DNA from: a virus
Reading direction: 5' to 3' (one strand)
IMG/VR virus record: IMGVR_UViG_3300045988_117355
DNA: 64,000 nt
Shown here: positions 40,044 to 45,253 of the stretch, piece after piece
Layout of the letters: the number at the start of each line of letters is the position of its first letter
How positions within the stretch are numbered: position 1 is the stretch's first letter
Position numbers and translations under genes: made by a program
The notes under the pieces: model-generated
What the model was told of the DNA's origin: nothing
Database searches by the model: none
The model's input: the letters and a program-made list of their open reading frames with translations, nothing else

Positions 40044-40281
40044 AACTATAATTTATATTATACTAGCATTAATTGCAGTATGTATAATGGTAGATGTGGC
40101 AGGATATGAATCTTCAATTAATCCTAGAGACATGGATATAACTCTTATAATATCTTCAATAATATATAGCATCTCCCTTGGCCTTATGATGGGTCATGTT
40201 TTGAGTTTTATAGTTGCTATATTAGAAGGTAAAGATTACATATTTAAGAATAATAAATTTCAAATAATAGATAAAGAATGA
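40030..40281 (+). CDS. small membrane protein
   Basis: 83 aa, two TM. Confidence 0.35.
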   Translation: MKIFKTIIYIILALIAVCIMVDVAGYESSINPRDMDITLIISSIIYSISLGLMMGHVLSFIVAILEGKDYIFKNNKFQIIDKE

Positions 40282-41045
40282 AAGGTGAATTAGTTATTGG
40301 GGCAATTGCAGGTGATATTCTGGGATCTCCTTATGAGAGAAATGCAATATATAATCCAGATGTAGATCTTACTGATGAACAAGATTTTACAGATGATTCT
40401 ATATTAACTATCGCAACTATGGAATGTATGCTTGATGATTCTGAGGAATTTGAAAAATATTACATGAAATGGGGAAGAAAATTTATAGGCGAATCTATAT
40501 GGGGTAAAAATTTCTTCAAATGGCTACATGAGGGAGATTGTAAGGCAATTAATCATTCATGGGGAAATGGATGTTTAATGAGAATTAGTCCTATAGCATA
40601 TTTTCCTGGAACTGAGGAGGATTGTAAAAGATTAGCTATTTTATCTTGTCAATATACTCATAATTGCCCAGAAAGTTTTCTAGCCGCAATTGAGTATGTA
40701 GGATATTTATATAGATTACTTCACCATATTCCAGTACAAGGAATGACAAATAATTATGAATTTTATCTAAATAATCCTACTGGATTTGATTGTAGTATTA
40801 AATCTGTTAAACAAGCATATTCATCTTATATACATGGTGGAAGCATGGGAGGTGATGTAGTTCTTAACTGTATCAAAAGTGCTATTAGATTAGGTGGAGA
40901 TACTGATACTATTGGAGCTATGACTGGAGCTTTAGCTGAAACTGGGTTTAGCGTTCAAAATCTTACTTATCTTTTAGGTTATTTAACTGAAGAGATGGTT
41001 GGAATTGTAAAAGAGTTTAGTAAAAAATTTAATTCAATGGAATAA
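40278..41045 (+). CDS. ADP-ribosylglycohydrolase (ARH/DraG family)
   Basis: 255 aa; N-terminal IGAIAGDILGSPYE and C-terminal LGGDTDTIGAMTGAL match ARH signatures. Confidence 0.8.
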   Translation: MKGELVIGAIAGDILGSPYERNAIYNPDVDLTDEQDFTDDSILTIATMECMLDDSEEFEKYYMKWGRKFIGESIWGKNFFKWLHEGDCKAINHSWGNGCLMRISPIAYFPGTEEDCKRLAILSCQYTHNCPESFLAAIEYVGYLYRLLHHIPVQGMTNNYEFYLNNPTGFDCSIKSVKQAYSSYIHGGSMGGDVVLNCIKSAIRLGGDTDTIGAMTGALAETGFSVQNLTYLLGYLTEEMVGIVKEFSKKFNSME

Positions 41046-41467
41046 TGTGTTTGACATCTAATACTAATATTCCTAAAATAGCACAAGAAGATATAGTGTG
41101 CTATAAAGTATTAATAAAAGCTTCTATCTTGAAATCACTTTTTGGGAAGGCCTATATAACTCCTTGGTATAATAAAAAGGTTAAACCCAAAGGATTATTT
41201 AAAGCAGAGGGGATGAAAGAAATTATCAGAGATTATTATGCATCTATTCATCCAACAAAACTTTATTGTGTAGGAGGAGGCTTTATTCATACTTACACAG
41301 ATCTGAATACAATTGGGGTAACTGGGCCAGATTTTGTTCGACAGAGAGTGTTTGAATGCATAATTCCAAAGGGTACTGAATATTTTGTAAGTATTGATGA
41401 TCAAGAGTATGCTTCCGATTGTATCATATTCAAAAGGGAAATAAAATGTCCGAAAATAATAAGGTAA
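41045..41467 (+). CDS. MCL-family small protein, tandem paralog 1 of 7
   Basis: starts MCL; conserved DIVCYKVL, GFIHTYT, ECIIPKGTEYF. Confidence 0.5.
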   Translation: MCLTSNTNIPKIAQEDIVCYKVLIKASILKSLFGKAYITPWYNKKVKPKGLFKAEGMKEIIRDYYASIHPTKLYCVGGGFIHTYTDLNTIGVTGPDFVRQRVFECIIPKGTEYFVSIDDQEYASDCIIFKREIKCPKIIR

Positions 41468-41769
41468 TTCAAAAGATGTTTGTATGTGAATGTGGATCAT
41501 TAGATCATATGTTCAGTGTAATGTTCTATAAAGGAGATGATGAATTATTTCTAGCTCCTTATCTTAAAAGAACTTATGGATTCTTTCGCAGACTAAGTAT
41601 AGCATTTAAATATTTATTTAAAATGGAGAATAGATTTGGATCACAATTTGATGAAGTTATTCTTCATAAAGATAAAGCAATTGAATTAAGAGATTTATTA
41701 AATGAATTCATAGATGGACAAGAGAAGAAAAGCAGTGATATTGACCAAAATTCCTCTCAACCAAGCTGA
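41446..41769 (+). CDS. hypothetical protein with CxC...H motif (start uncertain)
   Basis: track ORF 41419-41769 trimmed to internal Met MSENNK to avoid overlap. Confidence 0.35.
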   Translation: MSENNKVIQKMFVCECGSLDHMFSVMFYKGDDELFLAPYLKRTYGFFRRLSIAFKYLFKMENRFGSQFDEVILHKDKAIELRDLLNEFIDGQEKKSSDIDQNSSQPS

Positions 41770-42001
41770 GTTTATTCAATATAGGTATAGAATAAGGAGA
41801 GCTTTATCATCAATGTTTAAATATGGAGATCTTAAGGTTGAGGATTTATCTAAAGATGACAATAGGTTGATATTAGGAATTTTAGTAGGATTGCCATATT
41901 TAAATGATGAAAACATTAAATATCTTAATGAGAAACTAGACATGACACTTCCGACTTGGGAAGAGACTAAGAAGTATAATGAATCATTAAAAATTTTATA
42001 G
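41714..42001 (+). CDS. hypothetical protein
   Basis: 95 aa. Confidence 0.35.
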   Translation: MDKRRKAVILTKIPLNQAEFIQYRYRIRRALSSMFKYGDLKVEDLSKDDNRLILGILVGLPYLNDENIKYLNEKLDMTLPTWEETKKYNESLKIL

Positions 42002-43202: not shown

Positions 43203-43575
43203 CTCTGAAATGCAACAAGCACCAGAGGATATAATATGTTATAAAATTCTTGAAAGAATAGAGGACAGACTTTTTACTCCTTACAGAAGATTTCCAGTTG
43301 ATATAGAAAGTAAAATTTTAACAAGTAAAGGAGAAATTAAAAAAGAGTTTGGCTCAGATCTATCAAGGGAGTTTATAGGTCAAGGAGTTATTCATACTTT
43401 TGCTTACTTAGAGGATGTGGCTGTTGAATCATTATCTGCTTTACATTATGGGCACAAATATGAAGTCTATGAATGCATTATACCTAAGGAAACTTTTTAT
43501 TATACAGGGTTGGCCTTTGGAGTTCCTAGTTATGGAAGTATTTGTATTAAATTTATTAAGAGAGTAGATGTATGA
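43180..43575 (+). CDS. MCL-family paralog 5
   Basis: MCLVIE..DIICYKIL..GVIHTF..ECIIPKETFYY. Confidence 0.5.
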   Translation: MCLVIEVDSEMQQAPEDIICYKILERIEDRLFTPYRRFPVDIESKILTSKGEIKKEFGSDLSREFIGQGVIHTFAYLEDVAVESLSALHYGHKYEVYECIIPKETFYYTGLAFGVPSYGSICIKFIKRVDV

Positions 43576-44002
43576 CTATGTAATTTATACAGATGGATCT
43601 TATAAATCATCTAGAAAACAGGGAGGATATAGTGTAGTAATATGCAACAACAATGAGGAAGTAATAAAAACTATCTTTAAAGGAGTTAAAAATACCACTA
43701 ACAACAGAATGGAATTATCTGGATTTATTTCTGCATTGGAAAACATTCCAAAGGGATCTAAAGTAAAGATAATATCTGACTCAGAATATGTCTTAAATCC
43801 TCTAACTAAAGGATGGTTGGATAAATGGATAAAAGAAGATTTCAAGGATAAGAAAAATCCAGATTTGTGGAGGAAAGTTGCTGAATTATTACCTGATTAT
43901 AATATAGAATTGGAATGGGTTAAAGGCCATGAAGATTCTAAGTTAAATAATTTAGCAGATATGTTAGCACAACATGCTGGAGAAGTAGATTTAGATAATT
44001 AA
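43568..44002 (+). CDS. rnhA: ribonuclease HI
   Basis: 144 aa; YTDGS, TNNRMEL, SDSEYV, WVKGH motifs align with E. coli RNase HI catalytic residues. Confidence 0.85.
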   Translation: MYDYVIYTDGSYKSSRKQGGYSVVICNNNEEVIKTIFKGVKNTTNNRMELSGFISALENIPKGSKVKIISDSEYVLNPLTKGWLDKWIKEDFKDKKNPDLWRKVAELLPDYNIELEWVKGHEDSKLNNLADMLAQHAGEVDLDN

Positions 44003-44012
44003 AATTAAAAAC

Positions 44013-44459
44013 ATGTGTTTAATAGTACAATCAAGAGAACCCAAGATAGCAGAGAAAGATATAATCTGTTATAAACTGGTTAAATATTGGGAAGATGCAG
44101 ATGTTTATGTATCTCCTTTACAACACTTTCCTATAGCTTCTTCTAGGAAAATTATAGGATTTATACAAAAAGATGACTCTGATTATAGCAGAGTTTATCC
44201 TGGTATAATAACAAGAAAGACACTAGATTATAATGTCAGTAGAGGATTTTTGCACACTTTTATGTATTTAAAAAGTGCTAAGCATATTATATCTAAAGTA
44301 AGTAATAAGTCTGAATATAGGATATTTAAATGTATTATCCCGAAAGGAGTTAATTATTACGAAGGATATTCTAAATCTACACTTTGTGGAAATATTATCC
44401 ATGTTAAAGGTTTAGCATCAAAAGAATTAATTTATAAAGAAGAAATACCATGTGTTTAA
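44013..44459 (+). CDS. MCL-family paralog 6
   Basis: MCLIVQ..DIICYKLV..GFLHTF..KCIIPKGVNYY; ends PCV overlapping next ATG. Confidence 0.5.
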   Translation: MCLIVQSREPKIAEKDIICYKLVKYWEDADVYVSPLQHFPIASSRKIIGFIQKDDSDYSRVYPGIITRKTLDYNVSRGFLHTFMYLKSAKHIISKVSNKSEYRIFKCIIPKGVNYYEGYSKSTLCGNIIHVKGLASKELIYKEEIPCV

Positions 44460-45253
44460 CAGTATTAGATAAAAATCATCATATAGCCGAAAGTGACATT
44501 ACTTGCTATAAGTTATTTAAAATAAAAAGTGGAAAACTTGTTACTAAATATCAAGAATTTGAGGTGGATCCAACAAAAGAGTTAGTGGCTAGAGGGAGAC
44601 TTGATATTGTAAAATGTAATGAGGAGTGGGAGATTAATGGAGGAGTAATTCATTCATTTTCAACTATTTTTGGAGCACTTTTATATAGTGAAAGAAGTAC
44701 AGTTTTATATGAATGTGTTATCCCAAAAGGGACTAAATATTACATTGGAAAGTTCTCAGCATCTGGTTCTTATGGATCTGAAAAACTTACTTTGATAAGA
44801 AAAATAGAAGTAACAGAGTATAGAAATCTATTGAATGAATATCTTTCAGACATTCCTGACAAGTTTGAGAATGTTTATGATATTAAGTCCTATTCTGCAG
44901 CTCTTAAGTATTTAAATGAAGAAGCTGCTCCAGAAACTGGAGATGAGTGTGTTGATGCTTTCATTAAATTAAGAACAATTGCTAGAGCATGGAATAAATT
45001 TATGGGATTTGAGATTAATTTTAAAAATTTTAATCAATATAGATATGCTCCATATTTTTATTTGTCAGATATATTAGATAGTAACGGTGCCTACTCCGGT
45101 TTCGGCTACTGTGCTTCGACCTACGGCGTGTCTGCTGCCTCTGCCACTGTCGGCGGCCGGCTTTTATTTGAAAATGATAGAACTGCCAGATTGTTTGGAT
45201 TTATGTTCTTTGATTTGTACAAAAAGTATTTAATGCTTGATGGTGACTTCTAA
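44450..45253 (+). CDS. MCL-family paralog 7 with ~130-aa C-terminal extension containing a GC-rich Gly/Ala/Ser segment
   Basis: MCLTVL..DITCYKLF..GVIHSF..ECVIPKGTKYY; extension includes GAYSGFGYCASTYGVSAASATVGGRLL encoded by GC-rich patch 45085-45162. Confidence 0.5.
   Translation: MCLTVLDKNHHIAESDITCYKLFKIKSGKLVTKYQEFEVDPTKELVARGRLDIVKCNEEWEINGGVIHSFSTIFGALLYSERSTVLYECVIPKGTKYYIGKFSASGSYGSEKLTLIRKIEVTEYRNLLNEYLSDIPDKFENVYDIKSYSAALKYLNEEAAPETGDECVDAFIKLRTIARAWNKFMGFEINFKNFNQYRYAPYFYLSDILDSNGAYSGFGYCASTYGVSAASATVGGRLLFENDRTARLFGFMFFDLYKKYLMLDGDF

Follow-up and report, generated by a model that had tools for sequence, protein, structure and literature searches.

A tandem array of seven paralogs with a predicted ADP-ribosyltransferase fold in a crAss-like phage, including a putative target of a diversity-generating retroelement

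Seven paralogs of one protein family (P1 to P7) are encoded at positions 41045 to 45253 of a 64-kb stretch of DNA (the window) from a zeta-type crAss-like phage of about 180 kb. All seven are on the plus strand, as are all other features given below, and their pairwise identity is 21 to 47%. The family is predicted to adopt the ADP-ribosyltransferase (ART) fold, and codon variation points to P7 as a target gene of a diversity-generating retroelement (DGR). An ADP-ribosylglycohydrolase (ARH) gene lies upstream of the array and an NAD+ salvage island lies downstream. We suggest, tentatively and as a reading that falls a little short of probable, that the paralogs are NAD+-using effectors that modify the host, one of them retargetable, with the ARH as the eraser and the salvage island as the supply.

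P1 (140 aa; 41045 to 41467) matched the family HMM with an E value of 2e-38, and P2 (42002 to 42409), a degenerate copy with an MYL start, matched it with an E value of 1.6e-26. P3 (141 aa; 42379 to 42804), the copy chosen for modelling, is followed by P4 (135 aa; 42795 to 43202; E 2.5e-33) and P5 (131 aa; 43180 to 43575), which form the closest pair at 47% identity. An RNase HI gene (43568 to 44002; PF00075, E 2.9e-31) lies within the array, ahead of P6 (148 aa; 44013 to 44459) and the two-domain P7 (267 aa; 44450 to 45253; phrog_13450, E 4.9e-14; phrog_11581, E 4.1e-14). P5 and P6 also matched the family HMM, and a scan of the 64 kb with that HMM returned exactly P1 to P7. The array genes are tightly packed and mostly overlap. 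The seven paralogs named in a preliminary description of this DNA are borne out by their ORFs, by their mutual alignment, and by the match of every one to PHROG 13450 (function unknown; E 6e-7 to 1e-17). Contrary to that description they are not strictly consecutive: two unrelated small ORFs split P1 from P2. One, of 107 aa with a CxCG...H motif (41446 to 41769), had no family HMM match; the other is of 95 aa (41714 to 42001). Both are kept in relatives, and the 107-aa ORF is a called gene in L001 to L004 with orthologues in L023 and L034.

The string ATGTGTTTAA occurs three times (at 42795, 44013, and 44450), against a chance expectation of 0.26. It is a stop/start overlap at two of the three sites, including the P4 start, where it overlaps the P3 stop; at 44013 it is merely the P6 start. 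The reuse of the string had been read as duplication of a unit that includes its coupling junction. A recent duplication of this kind does not agree with the low identity of the copies, and the 10-mer recurs largely because Met-Cys-Leu followed by a codon starting with A yields ATGTGTTTAA at 29% GC. An in-frame stop lies 0 to 6 codons 5' of each of the seven starts, so the assignment of the N-terminal Cys is secure.

The family, made up of proteins of about 135 aa, comprises 9,352 clusters at 50% identity, nearly all in phages, and tandem arrays of 2 to 9 copies recur in unrelated jumbo phages. Of the 150 best library matches, 149 have the domain starting at residue 1. Pfam, NCBIfam, and PADLOC gave no match to the family, and none of the 59 matches to a Xanthomonas-type profile carries a Pfam domain. 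The earlier impression of an unrecognised, diversified paralog family was right. The PHROG search of the paralogs returned no structural protein.

Structure prediction revealed a fold that the preliminary description had missed. The AF2 model of P3 has a pLDDT of 92.5, and structural comparison assigned the predicted P3-type fold to the split β-sheet ART fold. AcrIF11, an ART-fold anti-CRISPR, is among the structural neighbours. SRAP and Ntn-hydrolases were also considered as parent families and were rejected, as the predicted fold is not theirs. BC2332 belongs to an ART family, SCOP d.166.1.6 (PMC3000352), with an active site that corresponds to the one in diphtheria toxin (PMC3024214). Among the closest known systems are four minimal ART-fold families, BC2332-like/DUF2441 (PDB 2AUA), Arr, CC0527-like, and DUF3990. 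Sequence similarity to them was not detectable. Unlike them, the phage family has a strictly N-terminal Cys and is almost confined to phages, and tandem arrays have not been described for any of the four. The empty searches of Pfam, NCBIfam, and PADLOC left no sequence-level link to any described ART family, and DUF3990 was touched by only 1 of 114 family members (E 0.1). A profile search of PDB sequences and an hhalign comparison with diphtheria toxin were both negative. We know of no ART family with an invariant N-terminal Cys.

The residues invariant across the seven paralogs are M1, L3, A, D, I, C20, Y21, G70, C107, I109, and P110. Cys2, a His, and a second Cys had been taken as the invariant set. 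In fact there are three conserved Cys (Cys2, Cys20, and Cys107), and P2 (MYL...GILECF) lacks both Cys2 and the His. Among 260 homologues, C2 is present in 245, D17 in 250, K22 in 250, H73 in 249, P110 in 259, G112 in 252, Y115 in 244, and S131 in 247. Mean-field DCA coupled C2-K22, K22-H73, H73-P110, T74-G112, and T74-S131. Cys2 and His73, kept in so many homologues, were lost together in the P2 lineage, and by this pattern they appear to behave as a functional pair. All five replacements in P2 (Cys2 to Tyr, Lys22 to Asn, Pro39 to Ile, His73 to Glu, and Thr74 to Cys) are common to the 8 of 8 P2-type sequences, and P2 is probably a pseudoenzyme.

In the homologues from the Xanthomonas phages XacN1 and Xoo-sp13, Cys2 and the His persist, and Val, Ala, or Gly stands at the positions of Cys20 and Cys107. 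The comparison with homologues thus upheld Cys2 and His73 and not the other two Cys. The preliminary description had offered a small thiol enzyme or a metal site; the first is possible, given the co-conserved Cys2 and His, whereas the second is not favoured. A structural zinc site made of Cys2, Cys20, His73, and Cys107 in a small nonenzymatic or virion protein would suit the crAss-like group, within which the four potential ligands are conserved. However, the Xanthomonas phage replacements, the retention of Cys20 and Cys107 in a P2 that lacks Cys2 and the His, and the lack of any structural-protein PHROG match render it extremely improbable. As a candidate class, a Cys3His zinc-binding protein was rejected because not all four ligands are conserved.

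No conserved acidic residue was found among the 260 homologues at the usual ART catalytic position near the C terminus, and position 138 is Glu in 122 of them. The catalytic triads of the three ART clades are H-Y-[EDQ], R-S-E, and H-H-h, placed on strands 1, 2, and 5. The distance from His73 (a strand, then a helix) to Gly112-x-x-Tyr115 is as in an H...Y pair, and equating these two residues with the first two of H-Y-[EDQ] would be guesswork. Because the canonical ART triad cannot be named and sequence similarity to ARTs is lacking, we considered that the paralogs might be thiol hydrolases, with the N-terminal Cys as the nucleophile and His73 as the base. In that case the ART-like fold would serve only as a scaffold, NAD+ would play no part as a substrate, and the enzymes might act on a peptide, an amide, or an ADP-ribosyl linkage in a component of the host's defences. 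As in SRAP (YedK/HMCES) and the Ntn-hydrolases, Cys2 would come to the N terminus after Met removal and is paired with a conserved His. The Cys is always residue 2, no sequence ever precedes the domain, and Cys2 and His73 are conserved and lost together, all of which speaks for hydrolases; we still think them unlikely.

Close relatives have 2 to 7 copies of the family. P6 is present in this phage, and the closest relatives, L001 to L004, have a deletion scar in its place (11 + 399 nt), with remnants of 15 nt at the 5' end and about 21 nt at the 3' end. The omega values of the paralogs are 0.4 to 0.85, versus 0 to 0.04 for the RNase H and SPFH genes, and the paralog proteins evolve faster than the neighbouring genes. 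Both the copy-number change and the dN/dS values agree with a rapidly diversified array, as first proposed.

P7 consists of an MCL/ART-like domain (residues 1 to about 130) and a C-terminal domain (about 136 to 267; phrog_11581) that homologues of 259 aa share. In a search for a C-type-lectin fold in this domain, the AF2 model of P7 came out at a pLDDT of 42, and PDB and Pfam sequences gave no match. Codons 211 to 233 and 237 of P7 vary at codon positions 1 and 2 only, in genomes that are otherwise 99 to 100% identical. Position 3 is fixed as C or T, a pattern of AAY-type codons, and Lys, Glu, Gln, Met, and Trp never occur at the variable sites. This 84-nt variable region (VR) lies at 45080 to 45163; a GC-rich, IMH-like element, GTCGGCGGCCGGCTT, lies at its end (45149 to 45163).

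A DGR target is recognised by mismatches between its VR and the template repeat (TR) that are confined to adenines of the TR (PMC5758913). Across the 84-nt core, the P7 VRs of this phage and of L001 to L004 mismatch the L048 TR only on template adenines, with one exception (L003), and for the P7 orthologue of contig _123822 the adenine-only mismatch holds within the same genome. Neither a TR nor a reverse transcriptase was found within the 64-kb window; the 175,906-bp contig of the P7 orthologue contains both, and a matching DGR cassette is also in contig _115714. In that related 176-kb contig of the orthologue, P7 and the TR are about 116 kb apart along the linear contig, or about 60 kb if the genome is circular. 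The P7 VR sequence is shared with the cassette's own tail-fibre-type target. By these sequence comparisons P7 appears to be a DGR target gene, which strengthens the earlier idea of anti-defence or host-range factors. DGRs are known in crAss-like phages (PMC7290462, PMC11054128, PMC12386605), and the targets described in that literature are RBPs or tail fibres only. Known targets in crAss-like and other phages are tail-fibre or receptor-binding proteins whose variable region is of the C-type-lectin kind. P7 resembles known targets in its adenine-only differences from the TR and its GC-rich IMH-like end. Unlike the usual targets, it is a non-adjacent second target in an early or auxiliary gene block, and its variable domain is fused to an enzyme-like head and not to a fibre.

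The ART fold makes the adjoining ARH and NAD+ salvage genes meaningful. The ARH gene (ARH/DraG-type; 40278 to 41045) matched PF03747 (E 2.4e-24; 87 bits against a gathering cutoff of 26.2) and phrog_6572 (E 9.5e-29), and its closest solved relatives are Lmo0067, ARH3, and DraG. Its stop and the P1 start have 1 nt in common, and the adjacency is kept in the crAss-like relatives L023, L025, and L034. RNase HI is in or beside the array in L021, L023, L025, and L034 and adjoins family copies in L022 and L026. Both genes lie where they had first been placed, upstream of the array and inside it. By Pfam matches, the NAD+ salvage island (47447 to 55108) contains a PncA-like isochorismatase (47447 to 48037), NAPRTase (48346 to 49518), NAD synthase (51236 to 52213), an NMNAT-like gene (54025 to 54624), a NUDIX gene (54506 to 55108), and an AAA ATPase gene, and a complete PncA-PncB-NadD-like-NadE route thus lies 2 kb downstream of the array. 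Relatives carry the same island, and in an independent lineage (L013/L016) two tandem family copies lie directly upstream of NMNAT, NAPRTase, and NadE.

In other phages, NAD-metabolism genes recur near the arrays and RNA-repair genes are about equally frequent, in a census without a background control. A KptA/Tpt1-like role in RNA repair, either NAD+-dependent 2'-phosphate removal or processing of RNA ends that host anticodon nucleases have damaged, is very unlikely. One housekeeping step would leave 7 to 9 diverged copies, a dead copy, fast evolution, and a DGR-diversified domain unexplained. The KptA motif is an Arg/His tetrad, which is not evident among the conserved residues of the family.

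The salvage genes also bear on a reading of the paralogs as proteins that, without turnover, bind or trap either molecules derived from NAD+ or the NADase/ART defence proteins of the host, since investment in NAD+ resynthesis suggests a conflict with NAD+-depleting immunity. The paralogs could, for example, be sponges for ADP-ribose-based immune signals. Free ADP-ribose reacts with cysteine to give a thiazolidine, and the 1,2-aminothiol at the N terminus might trap the aldehyde of the ribose in this form, comparable to the action of SRAP proteins on abasic sites. AcrIF11 among the structural neighbours favours such binders, and many diversified copies with one DGR-coupled copy would fit stoichiometric inhibitors of variable host targets. 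However, thousands of clusters strictly keep a polar Cys/Lys/His/Ser/Tyr set, which would sooner be expected of enzymes, and a pure binder has no obvious need of an adjoining ARH. We regard binders as decidedly unlikely.

ModA and ModB of phage T4 are adjacent paralogs. Like T4 (Alt/ModA/ModB) and Bacillus phage G (at least 10 ARTs), whose ARTs modify host macromolecules early in infection, this large phage has several ART-fold proteins, and phages with many ARTs, and with ART-ARG pairs, are known (PMC9503650). The T4 and phage G enzymes fall into the R-S-E or H-Y-[EDQ] clades, which can be recognised by their motifs and have Pfam models. Both are lacking in the present family, whose members are half as large and reach 7 to 9 tandem copies. 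As in DraT-DraG and the Aeromonas phage ART-ARG pairs (PMC9503650), the ARH adjoins, and is translationally coupled to, an ART-fold gene. Unlike in those pairs, one ARH precedes seven ART-fold genes, and the adjacency is found in the crAss-like clade only.

If the paralogs are NAD+-using effectors, as we prefer, they would act on targets in the host or its defences by transferring ADP-ribose to them or by processing a derivative of ADP-ribose, every diverged paralog with its own target. The noncanonical active site would comprise the N-terminal Cys, exposed as residue 1 by methionine removal, Lys22, His73-Thr/Ser74, the Pro110-Gly112-Thr113 turn, Tyr115, and Ser131. P2, having lost the Cys/Lys/His set, would be a catalytically dead copy. 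P7 would combine an enzyme head with a C-terminal ligand-binding domain that is rewritten by the phage DGR, making its target choice reprogrammable. Removal of ADP-ribose would be the task of the ARH, which could act as a safeguard or reset where the phage's transferases have been at work or could erase marks that the host imposes, and the nicotinamide-to-NAD+ salvage genes would keep the substrate available. More doubtfully, the family may be a new ART-fold clade with N-terminal-Cys catalysis, for example through a covalent ADP-ribosyl-thio or thiazolidine intermediate, that serves large phages as expandable tandem arsenals against host targets and in P7 is fused to a DGR-diversified binding domain.

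The array of this large gut phage resembles an adjustable set of tools with which host molecules could be modified. Its family is among the larger uncharacterised phage protein families, without a name in any curated library, and its assignment to the ART fold suggests a chemistry that can be tested. It also connects three aspects of large gut phages that are mostly handled apart: arrays of paralogs, the erasure of ADP-ribose together with NAD+ resynthesis, and DGRs. If the paralogs are NAD+-dependent modifiers, each would be a probe for whichever host process or defence system the phage needs to disable, and the invariant N-terminal Cys, if catalytic, would be a new solution in a much-studied superfamily. 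The DGR-coupled P7 suggests that hypermutation may be applied to effectors, beyond host recognition. If so, mutagenic retrohoming would change which substrates an intracellular, host-modifying enzyme selects and would not be retuning a receptor-binding fibre. This would extend the range of known DGR functions and could serve the engineering of retargetable protein modifiers.

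On the + strand, the block at 40278-45253 contains an ADP-ribosylglycohydrolase gene (ARH, 40278-41045), seven paralogous ORFs (P1 to P7, 41045-45253), and an RNase HI gene (43568-44002), all of which the preliminary description had reported. All seven paralogs match PHROG 13450 (function unknown), share 21 to 47% pairwise identity, and are the only copies that a family HMM found in the 64-kb window. The ORFs are real, but they are not strictly consecutive as had been claimed: P1 and P2 are parted by two unrelated ORFs (41446-41769 and 41714-42001). Neighboring genes abut or overlap, with a 10-nt gap before P6 as the sole exception, and the ARH gene lies immediately 5' of P1 with a 1-nt overlap. 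Promoter and terminator scans gave nothing above chance level. Because an in-frame stop lies 0 to 6 codons upstream of every paralog start, the Cys is the true residue 2. The 10-mer ATGTGTTTAA, which had been read as a reused stop/start junction, is indeed overrepresented (three occurrences in the window versus 0.26 by chance), but only two of the three are such overlaps. Most of the string is simply what the codons for M-C-L look like when the genome is rich in AT.

The window has a GC content of 29%, and nearly all genes are on one strand. Its 27 tRNA genes (18983-34228, all on the + strand) together cover every one of the 20 amino acids; three are Met-CAT and one is Ile-TAT. The PolA shares about 50% identity with its counterparts in crAss-like phages, and contigs carrying homologues are 175 to 186 kb long. 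These features agree with the description of zeta-type crAss-like phages in PMC12386605. The ORFs are unlikely to be an artefact of stop-codon recoding: each of the three stop codons is in use and no suppressor tRNA was found among the 27, so recoding does not affect the paralog ORFs. P4 and P5, which end at TGA, have lengths normal for the family.

No model in Pfam, NCBIfam, or PADLOC matched the paralogs. Neither megablast with the region nor tblastn with P3 or the family consensus found matches among 50,697 phage records; P4 alone, at E values up to 10, retrieved Xanthomonas jumbo phages. An exhaustive profile search of 50%-identity clusters returned 9,352 at E ≤ 1e-3 and 4,242 at E ≤ 1e-10, and in all but one of the top 150 hits (149) the domain starts at residue 1. 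Across 185,579 species genomes, a single strict motif matched at just four loci, all of them in two MAGs; the family is therefore essentially confined to phages. These MAGs, labelled Tenericutes and Firmicutes, are the only "cellular" genomes with the family. Their contigs (L013 to L016) are 59 to 120 kb long, carry phage-like NAD+ salvage genes, and are probably phage contigs binned together with the DNA of their host, which would be in line with the proposal that zeta crAss-like phages infect Firmicutes (PMC12386605).

Tandem arrays of the family recur widely beyond the window. There are five copies in Xanthomonas phage XacN1, seven in each of contigs L017 and L028, six in the 233-kb contig L010, and nine within 14 kb of the 312-kb contig L008, where an HNH gene is inserted. 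Phage Xoo-sp13 has three copies by HMM and five tandem ORFs by alignment (MN047793.1, 5971-8202); its GenBank record has no annotated gene under the best family match. HNH/NUMOD4 homing-endonuclease genes break up the arrays of L008 and L010, which suggests insertion of mobile elements into the arrays or their joint spread. Within the window's clade, the order ARH-array-RNase H-array-P7 is kept, and copy number varies among related phages: two (L021), four (L025 and L034), five (L023), six (L001 to L004), and seven (the window). Remnants of P6 (15 nt and about 21 nt) remain in L001 to L004, so the copy was deleted there.

Flanking genes of the window and L001 to L004 are 99 to 100% identical, and the divergence falls in mosaic blocks. 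Omega is 0.42 for P2, 0.49 for P3, 0.37 to 0.44 for P4, and 0.44 to 0.85 for P7; at similar dS, RNase H has 0.02 to 0.04 and the SPFH gene, which is under strong purifying selection, has about 0. The latter gene (36016-37842), just 5' of the block, encodes a 608-aa protein of the SPFH/Band-7 type, part of which is flotillin-like. Directly 5' of the ARH gene, an ORF for a predicted small membrane protein of 83 aa (40030-40281) is a local divergence hotspot at 40000-40300, with 87% nucleotide identity to L001 to L004 and an omega of 0.59 in DNA that is otherwise 99 to 100% identical. For the divergent block in P2 to P4 (42200-42900), mutagenesis of the kind produced by diversity-generating retroelements (DGRs) was rejected; the substitutions there are transitions of either direction, a pattern consistent with tracts of mosaic recombination.

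P7, the two-domain copy, has a different pattern. Aligned with 259-aa homologues, it shows a hypervariable patch in otherwise nearly identical proteins. Codons 211 to 233 and 237 vary at positions 1 and 2 only, position 3 being fixed as C or T, and the amino acids found there are those reachable from AAY codons. The core of this variable region (VR; 45086-45163) has no adenine at invariant positions and is followed by a GC-rich element. A pattern search led to a canonical DGR cassette in IMG/VR contig L048 (6686-10297), with a VR in a 758-aa target, a template repeat (TR), and a reverse transcriptase (RT; RVT_1, E 1.3e-19). This cassette and a second one from a related crAss-like phage (L050, 10935-14537) each comprise a target of about 750 aa, a TR, and an RT, and both TRs match the P7 variable region. 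With a single exception, every difference between the L048 TR and the VRs of the window (45080-45163), L001 to L004, and L021 is at a TR adenine.

Neither TR nor RT was found within the 64-kb window. The 175,906-bp contig with the five-copy array (L023) holds VR1, TR, and RT (L050) and the VR of the P7 orthologue (L049) in one genome, and every core mismatch between L049 and the L050 TR is at a TR adenine. On the linear contig, about 116 kb separate the cassette from the P7-orthologue VR, a distance that shrinks to about 60 kb should the genome be circular; non-adjacent DGR targets in phages are known, usually less than 50 kb from the RT (PMC5758913). The papers on crAss-like phages that were consulted (PMC12386605 among them) describe only RBP or tail-fibre targets. 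The substitution pattern marks P7 as a DGR target. A homologue search with its C-terminal domain gave no matches, yet orthologues exist, and the AlphaFold2 model of full-length P7 has a pLDDT of 42, too low for use.

Among 260 homologues, Cys2 (245/260) and His73 (249/260) are near-invariant, as are Asp17, Lys22, Gly70, Pro110, Gly112, Tyr115, and Ser131. The Cys and His had been described as invariant, but P2 has neither. Cys20 and Cys107 are kept in the crAss-like group and replaced in XacN1 and Xoo-sp13. This replacement rules against the suggested metal site (Cys3His zinc) and makes a zinc-binding structural protein highly improbable. Eight P2-type sequences have lost Cys2, Lys22, Pro39, His73, and Thr74 together; because of this co-loss, the five residues can be regarded as a single functional site, and P2 has the look of a dead copy. 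In a mean-field coupling analysis (Neff 280), links joined Cys2, Lys22, and His73, and also joined His73/Thr74 to Pro110, Gly112, and Ser131, but subfamily co-loss supplies part of this signal, so the coupling evidence is weak. A literature search found no publication on PHROG 13450 or DUF7666.

An AlphaFold2 model of P3 from a 114-sequence alignment had a pLDDT of 92.5 and a pTM of 0.88. Foldseek against the PDB gave a single weak match. BC2332 (PDB 2AUA), which belongs to the nearest known systems, is classed in SCOP as an ADP-ribosyltransferase (ART) family (PMC3000352), and its site matches the active sites of toxins (PMC3024214). No sequence-level bridge to any ART family was found; searching PDB sequences with a profile turned up nothing beyond a chance EVH1 match (E 0.12), and hhalign of the family profile with diphtheria toxin A gave no signal. 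By order alone, His73 (strand)-helix-strand-Gly112-x-x-Tyr115 is similar to the H...Y portion of the H-Y-[EDQ] clade, but the acid of that clade has no conserved counterpart after Tyr115 in the 260 homologues. A thiol hydrolase built on an ART-like scaffold, another reading of the family, is possible but unlikely. A BFVD structural search yielded unnamed members of the family and, beyond these, only weak matches in giant viruses, DUF7666 included. The weak matches (probability 0.93 to 0.98) are multi-domain proteins of Edafosvirus and a DUF7666 protein of Sylvanvirus, and the modeled fold may also be present in eukaryotic giant viruses.

Starting 2 kb 3' of the array are genes for a PncA-like isochorismatase, NAPRTase, NAD synthase (NadE), an NMNAT-like protein, and NUDIX. 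The first four form a complete nicotinamide-to-NAD+ salvage route. The island (47447-55108) also holds an AAA ATPase gene and differs among close relatives: L002 lacks AAA, and L003 lacks both NAPRTase and AAA. In L013/L016, which represent an independent lineage, a tandem pair of family copies lies immediately 5' of the genes for NMNAT, NAPRTase, and NadE. A census of 134 larger neighbors at about 33 other loci listed NMNAT-like (three to four), NAPRT or NAMPT (three), NadE, PnuC, NUDIX, and one ART-PolyVal; these are raw counts without background control, so we claim no enrichment, and their bearing on the NAD+ context is suggestive only. Non-catalytic traps or inhibitors of NAD+-derived signals or host NADases are another reading, which we consider doubtful. 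The same uncontrolled census listed RNA ligase (three), RtcB (two), CCA-adding enzymes, and metallophosphatases, and a KptA-like role in RNA repair seems improbable. Outside the crAss-like clade, no ARH homologue adjoining arrays was detected, and the census entries include neither a Macro nor a NADAR domain. RNase H genes adjoin or lie near family copies in L022 (10263-10793), L026 (10257-10790), L017 (15579-15986), and L046 (3478-3918). Because these contigs are outside the window's immediate clade, the association may go beyond shared gene order in one lineage.

The ART superfamily, ART-ARH pairs, multi-ART phages, and DGRs are already known. In the literature searched, we found no prior description of the family's ART-fold placement, of its invariant N-terminal Cys together with tandem expansion, or of a DGR-diversified family member. 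As the best-supported reading, at a little under an even chance, we suggest that the seven paralogs make up a battery of ART-fold effectors that use NAD+ and have a predicted, non-canonical Cys/Lys/His site. In this scenario, P2 would be a dead member, the targeting domain of P7 would be rewritten by a DGR, the ARH would serve as an eraser, and the salvage island would supply NAD+ to the effectors.
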